Of a DNA stretch of 64,000 nucleotides, positions 5,240-51,832 are shown piece by piece. How positions within the stretch are numbered: the stretch's first letter is position 1; every line of letters starts with the position of its first letter. The notes under the pieces are model-generated. The model did no database searches. It was given only the letters and a program-made list of their open reading frames with translations, and had not been told where the DNA came from. The position numbers were made by a program, and so were the translations under genes. The stretch lies in assembly GCF_056712565.1 (NCBI RefSeq), contig NZ_CM160072.1; one strand, 5' to 3'.

Positions 5240-6490
5240 ATGGAAAGTAAAGTAGTTGTTCCGGCACAAGGCAAGAAGATCACCCTGCAAAACGGCAAAC
5301 TCAACGTTCCTGAAAATCCGATTATCCCTTACATTGAAGGTGATGGAATCGGTGTAGATGTAACCCCAGCCATGCTGAAAGTGGTCGACGCTGCAGTTGA
5401 GAAAGCCTATAAAGGCGAGCGTAAAATCTCCTGGATGGAAATTTACACCGGTGAAAAATCCACACAGGTTTATGGTCAGGACGTCTGGTTGCCTGCTGAA
5501 ACCCTTGATCTGATTCGTGAATATCGCGTTGCCATTAAAGGCCCGCTGACCACTCCGGTTGGTGGCGGTATTCGCTCTCTGAACGTTGCCCTGCGCCAGG
5601 AACTGGATCTCTACATCTGCCTGCGTCCGGTACGTTACTATCAGGGCACTCCAAGCCCGGTTAAACACCCTGAACTGACCGATATGGTTATCTTCCGTGA
5701 AAACTCGGAAGACATTTATGCGGGTATCGAATGGAAAGCAGACTCTGCCGACGCTGAGAAAGTGATTAAATTCCTGCGTGAAGAGATGGGCGTGAAGAAA
5801 ATTCGCTTCCCGGAACATTGCGGTATCGGTATTAAGCCGTGTTCGGAAGAAGGCACCAAACGTCTGGTTCGTGCAGCGATCGAATACGCAATTGCTAACG
5901 ATCGTGACTCTGTGACCCTGGTGCACAAAGGCAACATCATGAAGTTCACCGAAGGCGCGTTTAAAGACTGGGGCTACCAACTGGCGCGTGAAGAATTTGG
6001 CGGTGAACTGATCGACGGCGGCCCGTGGCTGAAAGTTAAAAACCCGAATACCGGCAAAGAGATCGTCATTAAAGACGTGATTGCTGATGCATTCCTGCAA
6101 CAGATCCTGCTGCGTCCGGCTGAATATGATGTTATCGCCTGTATGAACCTGAACGGTGACTACATTTCTGACGCCCTGGCAGCGCAGGTTGGTGGTATCG
6201 GTATCGCCCCTGGCGCAAACATCGGTGACGAATGCGCCCTGTTTGAAGCCACCCACGGTACTGCGCCGAAATATGCCGGACAGGACAAAGTAAACCCAGG
6301 CTCTATTATTCTCTCCGCTGAGATGATGCTGCGCCATATGGGTTGGACTGAAGCGGCTGACCTGATTGTTAAAGGTATGGAAGGCGCAATCAATGCCAAG
6401 ACCGTAACCTATGACTTCGAACGTCTGATGGAAGGCGCTAAACTGCTGAAATGTTCAGAGTTTGGTGACGCGATCATCAAGAATATGTAA
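5240..6490 (+). CDS. icd: Isocitrate dehydrogenase (NADP); 3' ~165 bp is the prophage-adjacent copy of the att duplication
   Basis: 416 aa [41 protein letters not shown]...; classic Icd. Confidence 0.95.
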
Positions 6491-6541
6491 TCACTACATG
6501 TGTTAAATATTGAAACGGGCGTATAACACGCCCGTTGTTTT
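6327..6541. repeat. Left copy of the icd 3'-end direct repeat (attL side of prophage)
   Basis: About 215 bp here are repeated with a few mismatches at 53750..53966, including the icd stop codon and terminator hairpin. Confidence 0.85.
6513..6541 (+). terminator. icd rho-independent terminator
   Basis: Hairpin AAACGGGCGTATAACACGCCCGTT followed by GTTTT, 22 bp after the icd stop. Confidence 0.75.
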
Positions 6542-6557
6542 ATGATGATGTAAAATC

Positions 6558-6593
6558 TTCCCCAAAACTTTCCCCAAAACCCTTCCCCAAAAC
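6558..6593. repeat. Three tandem TTCCCCAAAAC repeats, candidate integrase arm-type binding sites
   Basis: TTCCCCAAAAC occurs three times with ~12 bp period between icd terminator and int; one further copy at 53621..53631. Confidence 0.5.
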
Positions 6594-6603
6594 TGGCTAT
6601 TTT

Positions 6604-7746
6604 CTATGCTGTTTTGATATCTACGATAATCCAGTCTTTACCACGATCATCATTGTATCGGTCGGTCATTTTTCTGGATTTATGGCCTAACAACTTTTGC
6701 GTATCCAGACCCTGTTCCCGATATAACCGTTCTGACAGAGATCGCTGCTCATGAAATGTGGGCGCAGTTCCTTGCTCCCATTTTATGCCACATTTTTCCC
6801 GGGCCTTTTTAAAAGCCGTTGTCAGAGTATTCGCAGAAACCTGGTCTCCTCTGTTTGCTTGAGAGGTAGTGTGACGGTAATGGACCAGATATTTACTAAC
6901 AACAGCATCCCTGCACTGAGATATAACTTCACGAAGGGTAATATTCAGAGCATCGCATTTCAGGTTAAGCGGAATAGCAAGTTTTGAACCGGTTTTTTCC
7001 TGAGTAATGTGCAACATGTCGTCCCATATATCAGAGAATTTCAAATTGCAGATATCGCCTAAACGTTGTCCAGTAACAAGAGCAAGTAGCATGCCGCATT
7101 TTAAATAGGGCTGCCGTCTGCTTACGCTGTCAAATATTGCCTGCCATTCGGGCAGTGACAATCTTTGGCGGTTTACTCGATTTCGTGGTTGTTTTGTTGC
7201 CTGCGCTGGGTTAAATCCTGGCGGAACATGTCCTGCGTGTTGTGCTTCTTTGAAGACGTCGATCAACACCATTCTCACGACTTGCGCCATCCTGTTATGA
7301 CCTTCAGCCTTTACAGCATCAATTATTTCGGCAATATCAAGTGCGGTAATATCCTTGAGGTGTTGCATTCCACAATGCTCACGGAAAAGACGAATGGGTT
7401 TGCCTTTTTGCCGATAGGAGTTGGGTCTTAGTTCATTATGTTGCAGCCTGTCCTCTTGGATAGAAATATATTTATCAAGCCATTCTGTCACCGTAATGTC
7501 TGAGCGCCTGCCTTTCATTCTTTCCAGACGCTCATTGACGCTTAATATTTGTCTGGTACGTTGTTCAGCAATAATGGTATTTGCTTCAGTAGCAACTTGT
7601 TTTGCTTCATTCTCATCAGTTCCTAAGCTATGAAAACGACCGGATAGTGGATGTTTGTATTGCCAATATACCTTTCCGGTTCGCTTATCTAATTTGCAAT
7701 ATAAATTGGGTATAGAGATTTTGTGAGATCGGGGTCTAGCAGCCAT
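6604..7746 (-). CDS. int: Phage integrase (tyrosine recombinase)
   Basis: 380 aa ORF directly beside the att repeat; C-terminal R..HxxR..Y-type catalytic region (LGHKSRKMTDRY); lambda-like int-xis arrangement. Confidence 0.88.
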   Translation of the reverse strand: MAARPRSHKISIPNLYCKLDKRTGKVYWQYKHPLSGRFHSLGTDENEAKQVATEANTIIAEQRTRQILSVNERLERMKGRRSDITVTEWLDKYISIQEDRLQHNELRPNSYRQKGKPIRLFREHCGMQHLKDITALDIAEIIDAVKAEGHNRMAQVVRMVLIDVFKEAQHAGHVPPGFNPAQATKQPRNRVNRQRLSLPEWQAIFDSVSRRQPYLKCGMLLALVTGQRLGDICNLKFSDIWDDMLHITQEKTGSKLAIPLNLKCDALNITLREVISQCRDAVVSKYLVHYRHTTSQANRGDQVSANTLTTAFKKAREKCGIKWEQGTAPTFHEQRSLSERLYREQGLDTQKLLGHKSRKMTDRYNDDRGKDWIIVDIKTA

Positions 7747-42108: not shown

Positions 42109-45100
42109 ATGGGTAAAGGCAGCAGTAAGGGGCATACCCCGCGCGAAGCGAAGGACAACCTGAAATCATCCCAGATGCTGAGCGTGATAGACGCCATCAG
42201 CGAAGGGCCGGTTGAAGGTCCGGTGGATGGATTAAAAAGCGTGCTGCTGAACAGTACGCCGGTGCTGGACAGTGAGGGGAATACCAATATATTCGGCGTC
42301 ACGGTGGTGTTCCGGGCCGGTGAGCAGGAGCAGACTCCGCCGGAGGGATTTGAATCCTCCGGCTCCGAGACGGTGCTCGGTACGGAAGTGAAATATGACA
42401 CGCCGATCACCCGGACCATCACGTCGGCAAACATTGACCGTCTGCGTTTTACTTTCGGCGTGCAGGCACTGGTGGAAACCACCTCAAAGGGGGACAGGAA
42501 TCCATCGGAAGTCCGCCTGCTGGTTCAGATTCAACGTAACGGTGGCTGGGTGACGGAAAAAGACATCACCATTAAGGGCAAAACCACCTCGCAGTATCTG
42601 GCCTCGGTGGTGGTGGATAACCTGCCGCCGCGCCCGTTTAATATCCGGATGCGCAGGATGACGCCGGACAGCACCACAGACCAGTTGCAGAACAAAACGC
42701 TCTGGTCGTCATACACCGAAATCATCGATGTGAAACAGTGCTACCCGAACACGGCACTGGTCGGCGTACAGGTGGACTCGGAGCAGTTCGGCAGCCAGCA
42801 GGTGAGCCGTAATTATCATCTTCGCGGGCGCATTCTGCAGGTGCCGTCGAACTATAACCCGCAGACGCGGCAATACAGCGGTATCTGGGACGGAACGTTT
42901 AAGCCAGCATACAGCAACAACATGGCCTGGTGTCTGTGGGATATGCTGACCCATCCGCGCTACGGCATGGGGAAACGTCTTGGTGCGGCAGATGTGGATA
43001 AATGGGCGCTGTATGTCATCGGCCAGAATTGCGACCAGTCAGTGCCGGACGGCTTTGGCGGCACGGAGCCGCGCATCACCTGTAATGCGTACCTGACCAC
43101 ACAGCGCAAGGCGTGGGATGTGCTCAGTGATTTCTGCTCGGCGATGCGCTGTATGCCGGTATGGAACGGGCAGACGCTGACGTTCGTGCAGGACCGACCG
43201 TCGGATAAGGTGTGGACCTATAACCGCAGTAATGTGGTGATGCCGGATGATGGTGCGCCGTTCCGCTACAGCTTCAGCGCCCTGAAAGACCGCCATAATG
43301 CTGTTGAGGTGAACTGGATTGACCCGGATAACGGCTGGGAGACGGCGACAGAGCTTGTGGAGGACACGCAGGCCATTGCCCGTTACGGTCGTAACGTCAC
43401 GAAGATGGATGCCTTTGGCTGTACCAGCCGGGGGCAGGCACACCGCGCCGGGCTGTGGCTGATTAAAACGGAACTGCTGGAGACGCAGACCGTGGATTTC
43501 AGCGTCGGCGCAGAAGGGCTTCGCCATGTACCGGGTGATGTTATTGAAATCTGCGATGATGACTATGCGGGGATCAGCATTGGCGGGCGCGTGCTGGCGG
43601 TGAACAGCCAGACCCGGACGCTGACGCTCGACCGTGAAATCACGCTGCCATCCTCCGGTACCACGCTGATAAGCCTGGTTGACGGTCAGGGTAATCCGGT
43701 CAGCGTGGAGGTCCAGTCCGTCACCGACGGCGTGAAGGTGAAAGTGAGCCGTGTTCCTGACGGCGTTGCAGAATACAGCGTGTGGGGGCTGAAGCTGCCG
43801 ACGCTGCGCCAGCGCCTGTTCCGCTGCGTGAGTATCCGTGAGAACGATGACGGCACGTATGCCATCACCGCCGTGCAGCATGTACCGGAGAAAGAAGCCA
43901 TCGTGGATAACGGGGCGCACTTTGACGGTGACCAGAGCGGCACGGTGAATGGTGTCACGCCGCCAGCAGTGCAGCACCTGACCGCCGAAGTCACTGCAGA
44001 CAGCGGGGAATATCAGGTGCTGGCGCGATGGGACACACCGAAGGTGGTGAAGGGCGTGAGCTTCCTGCTCCGTCTGACCGTAACAGCGGACGACGGCAGT
44101 GAGCGACTGGTCAGCACGGCCCGGACGACGGAAACCACATACCGCTTCACGCAACTGGCGCTGGGGAACTACAGGCTGACAGTCCGGGCGGTAAATGCCC
44201 GGGGGCAGCAGGGCGATCCGGCGTCGGTATCGTTCCGGATTGCCGCACCGGCAGCACCGTCGAGGATTGAGCTGACGCCGGGCTATTTTCAGATAACCGC
44301 CACGCCGCATCTTGCGGTTTATGATCCGACGGTACAGTTTGAGTTCTGGTTCTCGGAAAAGCGGATTACCGATATCAGGCAGGTTGAAACCACAGCCCGC
44401 TATCTTGGTACGGCGCTGTACTGGATAGCCGCCAGTATCAATATCAAACCGGGCCATGATTATTATTTTTACGTTCGCAGTGTGAACACCGTTGGCAAAT
44501 CGGCATTCGTGGAGGCTGTCGGTCGGGCGAGCGATGATGCGGAAGGTTACCTGGATTTTTTCAAAGGAGAAATCGGGAAAACACATCTGGCCCAGGAGTT
44601 GTGGACGCAGATTGATAACGGTCAGCTTGCGCCGGACCTGGCTGAAATCAGGACGTCCATTACGAATGTCAGCAATGAAATCACGCAGACCGTCAATAAA
44701 AAACTGGAAGACCAGAGTGCGGCAATCCAGCAGATACAGAAAGTTCAGGTTGATACAAATAATAACCTGAACAGCATGTGGGCCGTGAAACTGCAGCAGA
44801 TGAAGGACGGACGCCTTTATATTGCGGGTATTGGTGCCGGTGTTGAGAATACTCCTGACGGTATGCAGAGTCAGGTGCTGCTGGCGGCGGACAGGATTGC
44901 GATGATTAATCCTGCGAATGGCAACACAAAGCCGATGTTTGTTGGGCAGGGCGATCAGATATTCATGAACGAAGTGTTCCTGAAATATCTGACGGCTCCC
45001 ACCATTACCAGCGGTGGCAATCCCCCAACGTTTTCACTGACACCTGATGGTCGACTTTCTGCGAAAAATGCGGATATCAGCGGTAACGTGAACGCGAACT

Positions 45101-45591
45101 CCGGGACGCTCAACAACGTCACGATTAATCAGAACTGTCGGATTCTGGGAAAACTGTCAGCTAACCAGATTGAAGGTGATATTGTCAAAACGGTGGGAAA
45201 AGCCTTTCCGAGAAATGGCAGTTATGCCAGCGGTACAATAACGGTCACTGTGTACGATGACCAGGCTTTTGACCGTCAGATAGTAGTCCCCCCCGTTCTG
45301 TTTCGTGGGGGTAAGCATGAAAACTTCAACAGCAACAACCAACAGTCATACTGGTATTCAACCTGTAAGCTGCAGGTACTGAAGAACGGACAGGAAATCT
45401 TTCAGCAACCCGCGACGGATGTCAGCAGGGTATTTTCATCAGTCATTGATATGCCTGCCGGACACGGCCATGTCACCCTGACTTTCAATGTTTCTTCATA
45501 TGGTGCTAATAACTGGACGCCAACGACCAGTATCAGCGACCTTCTTGTTGTTGTGATGAAGAAATCTACAGCCGGTATCAGTATCAGTTGA
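42109..45591 (+). CDS. J: Central tail fibre / host specificity protein J
   Basis: 1160 aa; lambda J-like throughout, with fibronectin-III-like repeats and a C-terminal receptor-binding region that looks diverged from lambda. Confidence 0.93.
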
Positions 45592-45643
45592 ATTTTATAA
45601 CCCAGATACGGGCGCCAGAAATGGCGCCTTTTTTATTTGTGGA

Positions 45644-47710
45644 GTGAATATGGCAGTACAGATTTCAGGCGTGCTGAAAGACGGTGCAGGAAAACCGATA
45701 CAGAACTGCACCATTCAGCTCAAAGCAAAACGTAACAGCACCACGGTTGTGGTGAACACGGTGGCCTCAGAAAATCCGGATGAAGCCGGACGTTACAGCA
45801 TGGATGTCGAGTATGGCCAGTACAGCGTTATCCTGCTGGTTGAAGGTTTTCCGCCTTCACATGCCGGGGCCATCACCGTGTATGAGGATTCTAAGCCGGG
45901 GACATTGAATGATTTTCTGGGCGCTGCAACAGAAGATGATGTTCGTCCGGAGGCACTGTATCGTTTTGAAAAGATGGTGGAAGAGGTGGCACGCAACGCT
46001 GAAGCCGCCTCTCAGAGCGCAGCGGCAGCAAAGAAATCAGAAACAGCAGCGGCATCGTCCAGGAATGCGGCGAAAACATCAGAGACGAATGCAGGTAACA
46101 GCGCGAAAGCGGCAGCTTCTTCAAAAACAGCCGCACAAAACGCAGCAACAGCGGCAGAACGTTCAGAGACAAATGCCCGTGCGTCAGAAGAAGCCTCCGC
46201 AGACAGTGAAGAGGCTTCCCGCCGTAATGCAGAGTCAGCCGCTGAAAATGCCGGAGTCGCCACCACAAAAGCGCGGGAGGCCGCAGCAGACGCAACAAAG
46301 GCCGGGCAGAAAAAGGATGAGGCTCTGTCGGCAGCGACACGGGCTGAAAAGGCGGCAGACCGCGCAGAAGTCGCAGCGGAAGTGACTGCAGAGCCCTATG
46401 CGAATATAGTGCCGCCGCTGCCTGATGTGTGGATACCGTTTAACGATTCACTGGATATGATTGCGGGTTTTTCTCCGGGCTATAAAAAAATAGCTATTGG
46501 TGACGATGTGGTTCAGGTCGCCAGTGATAAACAGGTTAATTTCAGTCGCGCATCAACGGCAACATATATCAACAAATCTGGCGAACTGAAAACGGCGGAA
46601 ATTAATGAGCCGCGATTTGAGTGTGATGGCCTGCTTATTGAGGGACAAAGAACGAACTACATGCTCAATTCGGAAAGTCCAGCCAGCTGGGGGAAGTCAT
46701 CAAACATGGATGTGCCCGAAACCGGGACAGATAGTTTTGGTTTTACTTATGGAAAGTTTGTCTGCAACGATTCTCTGGTTGGGCAAACTTCGGCTATTAA
46801 TATGGCATCAATTGCTGCAACAAAGTCAGTTGATGTCTCAGGCGATAACAAGTACGTGACAACCTCATGCCGTTTTAAAACAGAACGACAGGTAAGGTTA
46901 CGTATACGGTTTGATAAGTATGATGGTAGTGCAACAACTTTTCTTGGCGATGCGTACATTGATACGCAAACGCTTGAAATTAATATGACAGGTGGGGCTG
47001 CCGGCAGAATTACGGCACGAGTCAGGAAGGATAAGACCACAGGCTGGATTTTTGCAGAGGCAACGATTCAGGCAATTGATGGTGAGTTAAAAATAGGCTC
47101 TCAGATACAGTATTCTCCTGAGCGGGGTGGGGCAACAGTATCTGGTGACTATATTTATCTTGCCACCCCACAAGTAGAGAATGGGCCGTGTGTATCATCA
47201 TTTATTATTTCAGGAGGCAGCGCAACGACAAGAGCCAGTGATTTGGTTAGTATCCCCACCAGAAATAATCTTTATAAGTTACCATTTACTTTTTTACTTG
47301 AGATTCATAAAAACTGGGATATTGCACCAAACGCCGCACCCCGCGTGTGGGATATAGCAGCAGCCAATACCGGGCAATCAGCAATTGCAGCAATCAACAG
47401 AGGTAGTGGTAAGTTATATATGAGTCTGTCAAACCCTTCAGGCTTGTATGTTAATAGCGCAGCGACAGATGTATTTGCAGAGAAAACCACATTTGGATGT
47501 ATTGCAAAAGCTGATGGTCACTTTCATGTGGTGACAAATGGTAAAGCGGTTAATGAAGTTTATTGTGAATATAATGGTGTGACCGCTGATAAAAATATCC
47601 GATTTGGAGGGCAGACGAATACTGGAGAACGACATCTGTTTGGCCATATTCGCAATTTCCGCATATGGCATAAAGAATTAAATGACAGGCAATTAAAAGA
47701 GGTCGTATGA
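45644..47710 (+). CDS. stf: Side tail fibre protein, chimeric: lambda Stf-like N-terminus, Ala-rich linker, novel AT-rich C-terminal domain
   Basis: N-terminal ~110 aa (M)AVQISGVLKDGAGKPIQNCTIQLKAKRNSTTVVVNTVASENPDEAGRYSMDVEYGQYSVIL match lambda Stf; C-terminal ~400 aa unrelated to lambda. Confidence 0.85.
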   Translation: MNMAVQISGVLKDGAGKPIQNCTIQLKAKRNSTTVVVNTVASENPDEAGRYSMDVEYGQYSVILLVEGFPPSHAGAITVYEDSKPGTLNDFLGAATEDDVRPEALYRFEKMVEEVARNAEAASQSAAAAKKSETAAASSRNAAKTSETNAGNSAKAAASSKTAAQNAATAAERSETNARASEEASADSEEASRRNAESAAENAGVATTKAREAAADATKAGQKKDEALSAATRAEKAADRAEVAAEVTAEPYANIVPPLPDVWIPFNDSLDMIAGFSPGYKKIAIGDDVVQVASDKQVNFSRASTATYINKSGELKTAEINEPRFECDGLLIEGQRTNYMLNSESPASWGKSSNMDVPETGTDSFGFTYGKFVCNDSLVGQTSAINMASIAATKSVDVSGDNKYVTTSCRFKTERQVRLRIRFDKYDGSATTFLGDAYIDTQTLEINMTGGAAGRITARVRKDKTTGWIFAEATIQAIDGELKIGSQIQYSPERGGATVSGDYIYLATPQVENGPCVSSFIISGGSATTRASDLVSIPTRNNLYKLPFTFLLEIHKNWDIAPNAAPRVWDIAAANTGQSAIAAINRGSGKLYMSLSNPSGLYVNSAATDVFAEKTTFGCIAKADGHFHVVTNGKAVNEVYCEYNGVTADKNIRFGGQTNTGERHLFGHIRNFRIWHKELNDRQLKEVV

Positions 47711-47985
47711 AAGATTTAACTTTGAAGTTTCATGACAAACTGCAGTTTAAGGCCTTCCTGTCATCTCTTGACTGGGAGGAGGATGAAGACTTCCAGAATA
47801 AACTGTTAGTCGATGAAATTGGTTTCACCTACACAGAAACAGGGGTAACAGAAGAGGGAGAACCTGTCTGTGTCCGGAATGACGGTTATTTTGTCAACAT
47901 TCGCATTCTTGATGACTTGTTTGATGTTTCTGTATTCTCTGATTATGTCGTGGAGCTGGAAACACCGCTTCGGGAATGGAGCTGA
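47707..47985 (+). CDS. Hypothetical acidic protein following the tail fibre
   Basis: 92 aa; start overlaps stf stop; not recognisable as a Tfa-type fibre chaperone. Confidence 0.45.
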   Translation: MKDLTLKFHDKLQFKAFLSSLDWEEDEDFQNKLLVDEIGFTYTETGVTEEGEPVCVRNDGYFVNIRILDDLFDVSVFSDYVVELETPLREWS

Positions 47986-47997
47986 AAGGAGGAAATA

Positions 47998-48291
47998 ATG
48001 GATATAAGCCCCTTACTTCATGCGCTTTGTGCTGTGGCTGCGCAGATACTGGTTGGTCTTTTTACCGGAAACTGGGCTTACGGAGCGATAGCCGGTTGTA
48101 CGTTCTTCATTGCGCGTGAACATACCCAGGCAGAATATCGCTGGATTGAAATGTTCGGGCATGGCAAGCGAATGAATATGCCGTGGTGGGGCGGTTTTGA
48201 TCCGCGAGCTTGGGATGTGGCAAGCCTGATGGATTTTGCTGTGCCGGTGGTGGCGTGTCTGCTGGTCTGGCTGTTGGTTAATCGTGGGTGA
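47998..48291 (+). CDS. Hypothetical small membrane protein
   Basis: 97 aa with hydrophobic segments at both ends (LLHALCAVAAQILVGLF...AVPVVACLLVWLLV). Confidence 0.45.
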   Translation: MDISPLLHALCAVAAQILVGLFTGNWAYGAIAGCTFFIAREHTQAEYRWIEMFGHGKRMNMPWWGGFDPRAWDVASLMDFAVPVVACLLVWLLVNRG

Positions 48292-48382
48292 AAAAAGGTG
48301 AGCTGTATATGCAACGGAGGAAGAAACCCCGTTGCTGGAAGCCAGGAAAAAGTATCGGGTGTTGCTGTCCTCGGATGTTGTG

Positions 48383-49240
48383 CTAATTGGGTGATAACAG
48401 ATCCTGTGTATGGGAGTTTCCCTTTTTGCGTGCGTTGATGCTGGTAACGGCAAACGTCATGATGAACAAAACCGCGAATAAGACGACAATCGTCGGAGCT
48501 GGTGCGCTGTCGATAAAAAAGGACAACCAGACACCAGTCATTGACACTATTACCGATATGCCAGTCGCCAGTAGGAGCGCAATATGAAAGCGTTGTGTCA
48601 GGAGTACCGCAATGGCGCCAGGCGCAATGAGCAGAGAAATGGAGAGAATGATACCTACCGCTTTCAGCGTCGCCACAATGGTCAGAGAGACCATGCACAG
48701 CAGCCCATAATGCAGCCATCTCGTATGCAAACCGCTTACCTGCGCCTGTTGATAATCAAAGCTGAACAGCAAAAAATCCCGCCATTTTACGCTAATAACA
48801 AGTGTAACCAGCCCGGCAATAATCATCGTCTGGATTATATCGCCGATGGTTATCCCGAGCATGTCGCCGAAAAGAATATGGTCAAGATGTACGTCTGGTT
48901 TGACTGCAATATACAAGATCAGACCTGCGGCAAACATGCCAGAAAAAACAATCCCCATCACTGTATCTTGCTTGATTCGGCTGTTGTCTTTCAGGTATCC
49001 CGTCGCCACCGCGCAGAATACTCCGGCGACGAATGCCCCTGTAGCCAAAGGTAACCCCAGAATCCAGGCAAGCACGATTCCAGGAAAAACCGCATGACTC
49101 ATCGCGTCACCCATCAGTGCCCAACCTTTCAGGACCAGAAAGACCGACAGCAGCGCACAGGGTATGGAAACTACCAGTGAAATCAGCAGTGCGTGACTCA
49201 TAAAGGTGAACTGCAGTGGCTCCAGTAATAATGCCATCAT
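48383..49240 (-). CDS. sitD: Mn/Fe ABC transporter permease SitD
   Basis: 285 aa polytopic membrane protein of the ABC-3 permease family, last gene of a four-gene operon. Confidence 0.85.
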   Translation of the reverse strand: MMALLLEPLQFTFMSHALLISLVVSIPCALLSVFLVLKGWALMGDAMSHAVFPGIVLAWILGLPLATGAFVAGVFCAVATGYLKDNSRIKQDTVMGIVFSGMFAAGLILYIAVKPDVHLDHILFGDMLGITIGDIIQTMIIAGLVTLVISVKWRDFLLFSFDYQQAQVSGLHTRWLHYGLLCMVSLTIVATLKAVGIILSISLLIAPGAIAVLLTQRFHIALLLATGISVIVSMTGVWLSFFIDSAPAPTIVVLFAVLFIMTFAVTSINARKKGNSHTQDLLSPN

Positions 49241-50094
49241 GAGCGATCCTCCAGCGCCTTATGCGCACGCCGACGATTTGCCAAAAGCCCATGGGTGGGC
49301 GCAAAGACAAATGCTAAAAGAAACAGCAGTGTCTGCGCCACCACGATGATTCCACCTGTCGCGCCGTCCAGAAAGTAACTGACCCACGCGCCGAGGAAAC
49401 TAGTTACACTGCCAATAGTTACAGCAATCATGAGCAGGCGGGGAAAACGATCGGTTAACAACCATGCTGTTGCACCGGGAGTCACCACCAGACAGATCAC
49501 CAGAAAGGCACCAACCGTTTGCAGCGCCGCAACGGTCGAAACCGACAGCAGGGTGAAGAAGATGAGTTTTAATCTGCCCGGATGCAATCCAATAGCACGG
49601 GCGTGATTCTCGTCGAAAAAGGTCACCATAAGATCTTTCCATTTGAAAAAAAGCACGATGATCGAGAGAATGCCAATGATAGTGAGTTGCAGGATATCCG
49701 CCGGATCGATTGCCAGAATATTGCCCAGGACGATGGTCTGAATGTTCACAGATGTCGGGTTCAATGACACCATAAACAGCCCCAGGCCAAAAAAGGACGA
49801 GAAGATCAGACCGATGATGGCATCTTCTTTTAAGCGGGTGCGTTGGTTAAGAAACAGCATGCTGCCCGCAGCCAGTCCGCCGGAAAAGAAGGCTCCCAGA
49901 GAAAACGGAAGCCCCAGCATATATGCCCCCGCAACACCCGGGACAATAGAGTGCGACAACGCATCGCCAATCAGCGACCAGCCTTTTAGCATCAGATAGC
50001 ATGACAGGAAAGCGCAGAGACCGCCGACCATCGCCGAGACCCACATCGCATTGAGCATATATTCATAGCTGAAGGGTTCCAGTAGCACGTTCAT
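49237..50094 (-). CDS. sitC: Mn/Fe ABC transporter permease SitC
   Basis: 285 aa ABC-3 family permease, paralogous to SitD. Confidence 0.85.
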
Positions 50095-50918
50095 CTTTCT
50101 TCCCTCTGCACCGCTGACGGTCGATGAGCCACAAAAGGGCGTTCATCGTCAGTAATAATGCTTTCTTCCGAGCCGTTAAGTGTGACATGGCGCAGTACGC
50201 CGCTAAAAGCCAGCTCCAGGTTCTCGGCTGTAAAAGTGGTGTCTGTCGGCCCGCTTGCCAGGACGGTGCCTTTGACCATGACCGTATAATCGCAAAATGT
50301 CGTGACGGATCCGAGATTGTGTGTTGAGACAAGCATCGTTTTGCCTTCCGCGCGTAACTCCCTCAACAGGCTGATGATTTTGGCTTCGGTTTTCACATCA
50401 ACGCCGGTAAAAGGTTCATCCAGCAGGATCACATCACCCTGCTGTGCAATCGCTCTCGCCAGAAAGACGCGTTTCTTTTGTCCACCGGAAAGCTCGCCGA
50501 TTTGTCGATGGCGAAAATTCACCATATCGACACGTTCCAGCGCATCGGTGACAATCTGACGATCCCTCTTTTTGGCGATACGCAACATACCCATATGCCC
50601 ATAGCGGCCCATCATCACCACATCTTCCACCAGTACAGGAAATGACCAGTCAACATCTTCTGACTGAGGGACGTAGGCAACCAGGTTTTTCTGTAACGCC
50701 TGTCGCGTGGGAATACCCAGAACAGATATCTTTCCGCTGGTCAGACGCACAAATCCCATAATCGCTTTAAACAACGTCGATTTTCCGGAACCGTTTACCC
50801 CAACCAGAGCGGCAATAGATCCGCCTGGTACTGTGAAGGATGCATCGCGCAGTGCTGTGTGCCCGTTACGCCAGGTGACAGTAACATCATTAACGACAAT
50901 GCCTGCAGATTGCATCAT
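50091..50918 (-). CDS. sitB: Mn/Fe ABC transporter ATP-binding protein SitB
   Basis: 275 aa; Walker [13 protein letters not shown] signature LSGGQKKR, Walker B ILLDEP. Confidence 0.9.
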
Positions 50919-51832
50919 TATTTCTCCCTTTTCCCAGCTTTAATTCCCTGTACCAGCGTACTGGTAGTAACCTTAAGAAGGTCGATATACGTCGGTACCG
51001 GGCCGTTTTCTGTGCTCAGGGAATCGACATAGAGCACACCGCCGTAGTGTGCGCCGGTTTCACGCGCAACCTGACGCGCTGGTTTATCGGAAATCGTACT
51101 CTCGCTAAAGACTGCCGGGATATGATTTTTCTTAACTATATCAACAACCTTACGTACCTGCTGCGGTGTTCCTTGTTGATCGGCATTAATCGGCCACAGA
51201 TAAAGCTCTTTTAGCCCCAAATCGCGTGCGAGATAAGAAAAAGCCCCTTCACTGGTGACCATCCATCGCTGATTCTCAGGGAGTTCCGTAATCTGCTTAC
51301 GCAGGGGGGCAAGGGTTTGGGTAATCTTGGCTTTATAAGTATCGGCATTGCGTTGGTAGGTTTGTGCATTTGCCGGATCGTATTTTATCAACGCATCACG
51401 AATATTATCGACGTAAATCAGAGCATTATCTGGCGACATCCATGCATGGGGGTTAGGTTTGCCCTCATAGGGTCCTTCGGTGATCCCTACAGGCGTCACA
51501 CCCGAAGAGACAATTACTTCTGGAACCCCATTGAGATGCTGGTAAAAGCGTTGGAACCACAATTCCAGATTCATACCATTGGCGAGAATCAGTTGTGCCC
51601 CCTGCGCACGTTTAATATCGCCAGGGGTAGGCTGATACTCATGAATTTCTGCACCAGGCTTGGTTATGGATGAGACTTCTGCAGCATCTCCCGCCACGTT
51701 TTTGGCCATATCCGCGATGATGGTAAATGTTGTAATGACCTTGAATTTTTCAGTTGCACTTGCCTGAAATGCGATCGAGCAGGTGAGTGCGAGGCCCCCC
51801 AAGAGCATGGTTACTTTTTTTATCGAGTGCAT
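50918..51832 (-). CDS. sitA: Periplasmic Mn/Fe-binding protein SitA
   Basis: 304 aa with signal peptide; cluster 9 (TroA/ZnuA-like) solute-binding protein. Confidence 0.88.

Follow-up and report, generated by a model that had tools for sequence, protein, structure and literature searches.

Among the described systems closest to the locus studied here, Cor (phages phi80, N15 and HK022) and Llp (T5) are outer-membrane lipoproteins that block a single receptor, FhuA, P22 SieA, T4 Imm and HK97 gp15 are inner-membrane superinfection-exclusion proteins, and P22 gtrABC and Sf6 oac are serotype-conversion modules that lie in the slot between the tailspike and integrase (int) genes. Herein we characterize two small genes, orf92 and orf97, which follow the side tail fibre gene (stf) in a 64,000-nucleotide (nt) stretch of contig NZ_CM160072.1 (NCBI RefSeq assembly GCF_056712565.1); this whole stretch is hereafter called the window. 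Both are real genes under purifying selection, and orf97 behaves as a mobile cassette: lambda-like, P22-like, P2-like and SSU5-like phages all carry it next to a receptor-binding gene. Since its bacterial homologues include neighbours of the capsule genes KpsS and KpsD and of genes for 3-deoxy-D-manno-oct-2-ulosonic acid (Kdo), we infer a role in glycoconjugate assembly. Our leading reading, to which we give somewhat less than an even chance, is that orf97 acts on envelope-glycan assembly, by which a phage receptor is changed or masked. The genes concerned are as follows, in window positions.

45644-47710, + strand: stf, side tail fibre (Stf), 688 amino acids (aa), directly 5' of orf92
47707-47985, + strand: orf92, acidic soluble alpha/beta protein of 92 aa (structure predicted), phrog_1361
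47986-47992, + strand: Shine-Dalgarno sequence AAGGAGG, read from the sequence, 5 nt 5' of the orf97 ATG
47998-48291, + strand: orf97, predicted integral membrane protein of 97 aa, phrog_1443

The orf92 ATG overlaps the stf stop codon as GTATGA (an ATGA overlap), and a gap of 12 nt separates orf92 from orf97. The first-pass annotation of the window had proposed two small genes of no assigned family between the fibre gene and the sit operon, the first encoding an acidic protein whose start overlaps the fibre stop. Coordinates, + strand, conservation and RNA sequencing (RNA-seq) agree with this description, as does the isoelectric point of orf92 (4.1, with 22 acidic versus 8 basic residues). The region 45644-48400 matches Escherichia phage 21 (OL657228) at 100% identity, the annotation of which lists orf92 as a ‘hypothetical protein’ and orf97 as a ‘putative membrane protein’, and 47600-48400 is matched in 2,099 of 5,426 complete E. 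coli genomes at a median of two places per genome. The homologues form 321 clusters for orf92 and >577 for orf97, and the ratio of nonsynonymous to synonymous substitution rates (dN/dS), calculated from E. coli phage alleles, is 0.31 (orf92, 8 alleles) and 0.14 (orf97, 50 alleles). The best PHROG matches (orf92 to phrog_1361, 3e-41; orf97 to phrog_1443, 2.4e-58) are both to families of ‘unknown function’, Pfam, NCBIfam and PADLOC hold no family for either protein, and sequence and profile searches of the PDB were empty or at noise level. Searches of the literature on phage 21, sit and fibre genes, on Jouyvirus, on the small RNA svsR and on Gifsy-1 Stf turned up nothing on orf92 or orf97.

The AlphaFold2 model of orf97 (predicted local distance difference test score, pLDDT, 93) consists of three helices (residues 4-23, 26-52 and 74-96), and of the three peaks in its hydropathy profile the outer two are strong and the middle one is weaker. 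From these three hydrophobic helices and the hydropathy we predict an envelope location. The protein had first been described as a two-helix membrane protein, and the GenBank note for phage 21 likewise gives two transmembrane domains (TMHMM); the membrane assignment stands, the helix count does not agree with the AlphaFold2 model. By the positive-inside rule the conserved loop would be cytoplasmic (5.3 Lys+Arg, versus ~0 in the first loop). The protein carries the conserved motif AREHTQAEYRWI..G.GKR.NMPWWGGFD.R.WD, and His8, Gly29, Arg40, Glu41, Gln44, Ala45, Glu46, Trp72 and Pro83 are invariant or nearly so even across distant members. These residues are located at the helix ends and in the loop between helices 2 and 3, and the model thus suggests that they form a single interfacial site. 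The family comprises 451 clusters at 50% identity, all of 63-146 aa and free of domain fusions, with ~60% identity between the proteins of E. coli phages, Comamonas and Aeromonas. Comparison with exclusion and defence families gave no PADLOC match at E<=1 and none in Pfam or NCBIfam, where no match to Gtr or Oac proteins was found either. A Cor/Llp-like lipoprotein was considered and rejected, as orf97 has no lipobox and its Cys11 is not conserved.

In E. coli lambdoid prophages, orf97 lies 3' of orf92 in every locus that extends far enough, and its copies are ~78-100% identical (mostly 88-100%), while identity falls to 54% for orf92 and to ~60% for Stf. A scan of IMG/VR with the orf97 alignment retrieved only near-identical E. 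coli loci. Three gene orders recur: stf, orf92, orf97 (phage 21 type); stf, orf93, a second fibre of 346 aa, orf97 (Tritos type); and stf, orf93, a second fibre of 237 aa, orf97. The second fibres share an N-terminus of 20-30 residues (MATSTVIPDDIKTLK...) and differ in their S74-like self-chaperone ends, which suggests branched or dual fibres. Such a short fibre between orf93 and orf97 was seen in many E. coli lambdoid prophages; two examples are located as follows, each in the coordinates of its own locus.

L002, 6670-7710: second fibre, Tritos locus
L021, 6289-6996: second fibre

Beyond these lambdoids, the cassette recurs next to receptor-binding genes of quite different phages. An SSU5-like phage-plasmid also has the orf92/orf97 pair behind Stf. 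In Aeromonas and Leclercia, P2/HP1-like prophages carry the orf97 homologue after the fibre gene with a start/stop overlap, in Halomonas phage phiHAP-1 it follows Tfa in the equivalent of the P2 Z/fun slot, and in a Comamonas prophage a gpJ-like tip protein precedes it and the lysis cassette comes next. Two P22-like phages carry it between tailspike and int, the position held by gtrABC in P22 and by oac in Sf6: in Gally the order is tailspike, orf97 homologue, int, and in vB_EcoP-611R6 an OafA-type O-acetylase gene lies between the tailspike gene and the orf97 homologue. The Gally copy is moron-like, being placed behind a strong terminator and a 190-bp (base pair) AT-rich spacer. In 611R6, ~190 bp of the 3' end of a Tritos-type second fibre, with its terminator hairpin, have been kept 5' of the orf97 copy (L246 4700-5000 compared with L002 7520-7750). 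This scar is direct evidence of the cassette moving between phage types by recombination. As a side observation, the tail proteins encoded 5' of orf97 homologues in Comamonas, Pantoea and Chelativorans weakly match the middle region of Stf.

The Comamonas arrangement bears on whether orf97 is a holin, an antiholin or another lysis-timing accessory. There the gene is just 5' of holin-like, endolysin-like and Rz-like spanin genes, Phage_lysozyme is encoded 3' of the homologue in 2 genome loci, and a small protein predicted to span the membrane several times would suit such a function. The same Comamonas cassette, however, has a holin candidate of its own. In E. coli phages orf97 is far from the lysis genes (its neighbours in the window are orf92 and sitD), the protein has a long invariant polar loop that does not resemble holins and lacks a charged C-terminal tail (the tail averages 2.7 residues and a charge of +0.5), and members of the family occur in non-phage kps operons. 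We rejected the holin assignment, given that only Comamonas prophages place orf97 next to a lysis cassette and that the charged tail is missing; a lysis accessory of any kind is highly improbable.

The relatives outside phages were retrieved by an alignment-based scan of species-representative genomes, in which 80 loci were mapped and their neighbours clustered. The family was found in Aeromonas, Leclercia, Silvania, Pantoea, Comamonas, Acidovorax and ~55 Alphaproteobacteria. Recurrent neighbours of polysaccharide type surround the homologue in 29 of the 80 loci, and in 18 of the 80, from two bacterial orders, bona fide kps/Kdo genes lie within 5 kb. Directly 5' of the homologue, 7 loci have a KpsS gene (with NCBIfam E values as low as 4e-82) and 4 have a gene for an exporter of KpsD/Wza type. 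The arrangement varies, with at least three orders of genes observed, where (-) marks the minus orientation: sulfatase(-), KpsS, orf97 homologue, epimerase, Ugd, PhyH; GT2(-), KpsD, orf97 homologue, PhyH(-), KdsA(-), KpsF, KpsU; and, in Aureimonas, KpsD, orf97 homologue, KdsA, KpsU, KpsF, with a related order of differing orientation in Devosia. That the gene orders differ, and do so in two bacterial orders, argues for a functional tie between orf97 and kps. The commonest neighbour of the family is a PhyH-like dioxygenase (19 loci: L188, L212, L228, L239 and 15 more). This protein of ~350 aa is the neighbour met most often in Sphingomonadales, where it lies beside KdsA, KpsF and KpsU, and it may be a Kdo-modifying enzyme.

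A more specific version of the glycan reading can be drawn from these loci. The orf97 family would be a hitherto undescribed inner-membrane component of capsule assembly of the kind that depends on an ATP-binding cassette (ABC) transporter (kps-type), or of Kdo-glycolipid assembly, which several temperate phage lineages would have captured and parked beside receptor-binding genes to rewire the host surface glycan; for example, orf97 could supply, bind or process the lipid primer used by KpsS/KpsC. In this detail the proposal is speculative, and we think it improbable.

Published transcriptomes allowed us to follow the genes in lysogens. The module occurs three times in strain LF82, in Perceval (whose gene lengths equal those in the window), Tritos and Gally, and RNA-seq of this strain compared the MB6 macrophage condition with LB, using a 5-fold cut-off for morons in LB (Misson et al. 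2023, PMC9928086). Reads were detected for both orf92 and orf97. In Perceval the log2 fold changes in macrophages were 4.85 for stf, 3.73 for orf92 and 3.0 for orf97, while the upstream tail genes were flat, J reached only 2.05 and lom (-2.07) was not significant. Under host-cell conditions the fibre module is therefore transcribed from the prophage independently of the late operon. The values for Tritos were 5.37 (stf), 7.85 (orf93) and 6.21 (second fibre), and the orf97 homologue of Gally rose from ~4 to ~8.5 log2 units in macrophages. Reads for orf92 also exceeded those for stf, which suggests a promoter inside stf. The features of the window that concern this transcription are listed below.

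42109-45591: J, upstream of stf
45610-45629, + strand: terminator-like hairpin GGGCGCCAGAAATGGCGCCT with T run, between J and stf
46959-46986, + strand: candidate sigma-70-like promoter TTGATA-16-TAATAT inside stf, at chance frequency and a lead only

The hairpin marks the upstream edge of the fibre module; it is also present in Tritos and is labelled a terminator in the phage 21 annotation. The candidate promoter is conserved in the stf of Tritos, and its activity would fit the excess of orf92 over stf reads. As for the macrophage response itself, it could reflect regulated expression or mere derepression of AT-rich DNA.

Induction from prophages in macrophages would also be in keeping with orf97 being an inner-membrane superinfection-exclusion protein that blocks DNA entry and has no part in glycan assembly. 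The small size and predicted integral membrane nature of the protein would suit this alternative, and so would its place beside receptor-binding genes, including known anti-phage hot spots, among them the P2 Z/fun slot, and its moron-like setting in Gally behind a terminator and AT-rich spacer. Against it, no exclusion family in PADLOC, Pfam or PHROG is matched, reads for the gene in LB lysogens are close to background, the breadth and conservation of the family (~60% identity across genera, 451 clusters) are unusual for such a protein, and homologues have been kept in chromosomal kps/Kdo operons that have no phage genes nearby. On balance we regard a block on DNA entry as unlikely.

We next consider orf92 together with the fibre that it follows. 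Stf (PHROG 1419) has an N-terminus of lambda type (Pfam phage_tail_N, 9.8e-69), its residues 331-531 match NCBIfam GTA_spike_fiber (‘GTA head spike fiber’, 1.2e-14), and its C-terminal domain is lectin-like (LamG-type), with a sub-threshold match to Pfam Laminin_G_3. That domain is a mosaic in which a conserved frame and last strand enclose a highly variable core, and the core has been swapped among prophages independently of orf92. The AlphaFold2 model of orf92 is of alpha/beta type (pLDDT 91), and its homologue clusters are confined to Escherichia/Shigella. Of 84 loci, 82 have a long open reading frame (ORF) whose end coincides with the orf92 start codon, and each of the upstream C-termini inspected was a LamG-type Stf end carrying RHLFGH.RN.RIWHKEL. 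This constancy does not extend to the receptor-binding part: ahead of orf92 copies that are 90-95% identical to that of the window, the last 140 residues of Stf share only 36-45% identity, and the Pearson correlation between orf92 and the Stf end is only 0.47, driven by linkage of the last ~12 residues. Three orf92 subtypes track these ~12 residues (NDRQLKEVV vs TDAQMGESIK) as well as the presence or absence of a second fibre, which could reflect function or mere linkage.

It had been suggested at first that this slot would hold a fibre chaperone or a receptor-masking factor. The positional part of that suggestion is borne out, in that orf92 and orf97 both belong to the fibre module; the chaperone part has lost ground. 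Placement directly 3' of the fibre gene and co-induction with stf in the published RNA-seq match what a chaperone would show. Searches of Pfam, PHROG, NCBIfam and the PDB and fold searches nevertheless revealed no similarity of orf92 to known fibre assembly (Tfa-type) families, so that clear homology to a known fibre chaperone was looked for and not found, and near-identical copies accompany divergent receptor-binding ends. Because orf92 does not co-vary with the variable receptor-binding part of the fibre, it is not a classic specific chaperone, and we rejected that candidate. We infer instead an accessory that serves the lectin-ended fibre class in general, either as an assembly helper or as an adaptor.

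A related alternative makes both products fibre-assembly factors, with orf92 acting as a chaperone dedicated to Stf, comparable to Tfa of lambda or G of P2, and orf97 as a membrane-bound helper in fibre or spike maturation. The translational coupling of orf92 to Stf, the invariant gene arrangement, the co-transcription of stf, orf92 and the second fibre and, in P2-like phages, the overlap of orf97 with the stop codon of the fibre gene or of Tfa are all as such a pairing would predict. Five findings speak against it: orf92 has no similarity to Tfa-type families; its near-identical copies are paired with very different receptor-binding domains; orf97 follows fibres that have their own S74 intramolecular chaperone; a terminator separates orf97 from the spike or fibre gene in Gally and Tritos; and bacterial chromosomes hold orf97 homologues with no fibre gene nearby. 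We judge a joint assembly role to be distinctly unlikely.

The functional steps of the explanation that we favour, a role of orf97 in envelope-glycan assembly, are all inferred from what could be demonstrated, namely the reality of the genes, the structure predictions, the genomic associations and the transcription patterns. In this explanation the side-tail-fibre module of a lambdoid prophage of phage 21 type runs from stf through orf92 and an optional second short fibre to orf97, and orf92 and orf97 form its conserved end. The orf92 protein would be cytoplasmic, made by translational coupling with Stf, and would recognise the conserved Stf framework or C-terminal tail rather than the variable receptor-binding loops. 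The orf97 protein would be a small inner-membrane protein with an invariant polar site (His8, Arg40-Glu41, Gln44-Ala45-Glu46, Trp72, Pro83), and it would act at that membrane on the assembly of a surface glycoconjugate (capsule or lipopolysaccharide (LPS) type). The glycan bound by such fibres would then be less abundant, or altered, on a cell that carries the gene, and the outcome would be receptor-changing lysogenic conversion or exclusion. The receptor masking or exclusion first imagined for the 97 aa protein gains indirect support from the presence of the cassette in at least four phage architectures and from its capsule/Kdo homologues, but what these suggest is less a simple plug on incoming phage than an effect on how the surface glycan is assembled.

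Several observations weigh against a role in glycan assembly. K-12-type strains, in which phage 21 can grow, have no kps capsule, so any target of orf97 must be more general. The link to kps is seen in distant homologues (44-55% identity), some of them in related genomes, and the number of independent observations is lower than the raw count since several genomes are related; many other chromosomal settings, such as that with pirin/RIO1 in Aeromonas, give no clue. The fold search with orf97 returned only generic helical bundles and nothing specific, and the TMHMM note implies a periplasmic loop where the positive-inside rule gives a cytoplasmic one. With respect to expression, a scan for promoters and terminators flanking orf92 and orf97 in the window found none above chance. 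In LB, orf92 and orf97 were at only ~2.3x and ~1.8x the prophage background, respectively, and no LF82 copy passed the moron cut-off there (PMC9928086). The orf97 of Tritos was not induced in macrophages (log2 fold change 0.21, same data), which fits the hairpin GGGGCCGAGCGCCCC and T run that precede it, between second fibre and orf97, in the Tritos type. Finally, the macrophage signal could be no more than derepression of AT-rich DNA.

Around the module, the window holds other genes, among them the following.

48383-51832, minus strand: sitDCBA, 3' of orf97

The sitABCD iron/manganese transporter operon is prophage cargo, convergent with orf97, and no terminator was detected in the 91-nt gap between the two; in related phages its place is taken by dinI-int (mEp460) or pinR (Tritos). 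Near the left end, within 5240-7746, a 416 aa ORF (+ strand) and a 380 aa ORF (minus strand) resemble icd and integrase; as candidates, they would fit insertion at the phage 21 attachment site in icd. Two long antisense ORFs without support, one of 515 aa over J (43039-44586, minus) and one of 213 aa over orf97 and sitD (48078-48719, minus), are probably spurious.

About four in ten complete E. coli genomes contain a match to this stretch, and the two genes carry no annotation beyond ‘hypothetical’. If orf97 does alter surface-glycan assembly, it would be a very common and overlooked factor of lysogenic conversion or exclusion in pathogenic E. coli, and, switched on inside macrophages, it would be relevant to the host range of phages used in therapy. 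Its conserved partnership with KpsS/KpsD would also make it a candidate for an unassigned step of capsule biogenesis. As orf92 does not co-vary with the receptor-binding domain, it should be possible to exchange lectin-type fibre ends while keeping the accessory, which is useful for fibre engineering.

Set against the known systems, orf92 resembles lambda Tfa, P2 gpG, Mu U' and T4 gp38/gp57A in being a small gene right after the fibre, in the same operon and translationally coupled; it differs in having no sequence or fold similarity to Tfa-type proteins, in its size (92 aa, about half that of Tfa) and in not co-varying with the receptor-binding end of the fibre. As for orf97, it is like Cor and Llp a small, though only predicted, envelope protein encoded right after a receptor-binding gene, with the expected effect of keeping phage off the carrier, but it has no lipobox, is predicted to reside in the inner membrane and is conserved across classes of Proteobacteria. 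With SieA, Imm and gp15 it shares the features of a small predicted inner-membrane protein of a temperate phage and may share at least conditional expression from the prophage, whereas it has no homology to them, a far wider taxonomic spread, stronger conservation and relatives kept in non-phage operons. The likeness to gtrABC and oac lies in the tailspike-int slot occupied in Gally and 611R6 and in bacterial relatives among polysaccharide genes; unlike those modules, orf97 is a single 97 aa protein with no GtrA/B/C or Oac homology and no recognisable transferase partner in the phage. With regard to the ABC-transporter-dependent, group 2-like kps capsule loci (KpsS/KpsC, KpsD, KpsF, KpsU, KdsA), to our knowledge no small three-helix protein has been described in that pathway, and the orf97 of E. 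coli phages has no kps neighbours, whereas its alphaproteobacterial homologues stand directly 3' of KpsS or KpsD, beside the Kdo-synthesis genes.

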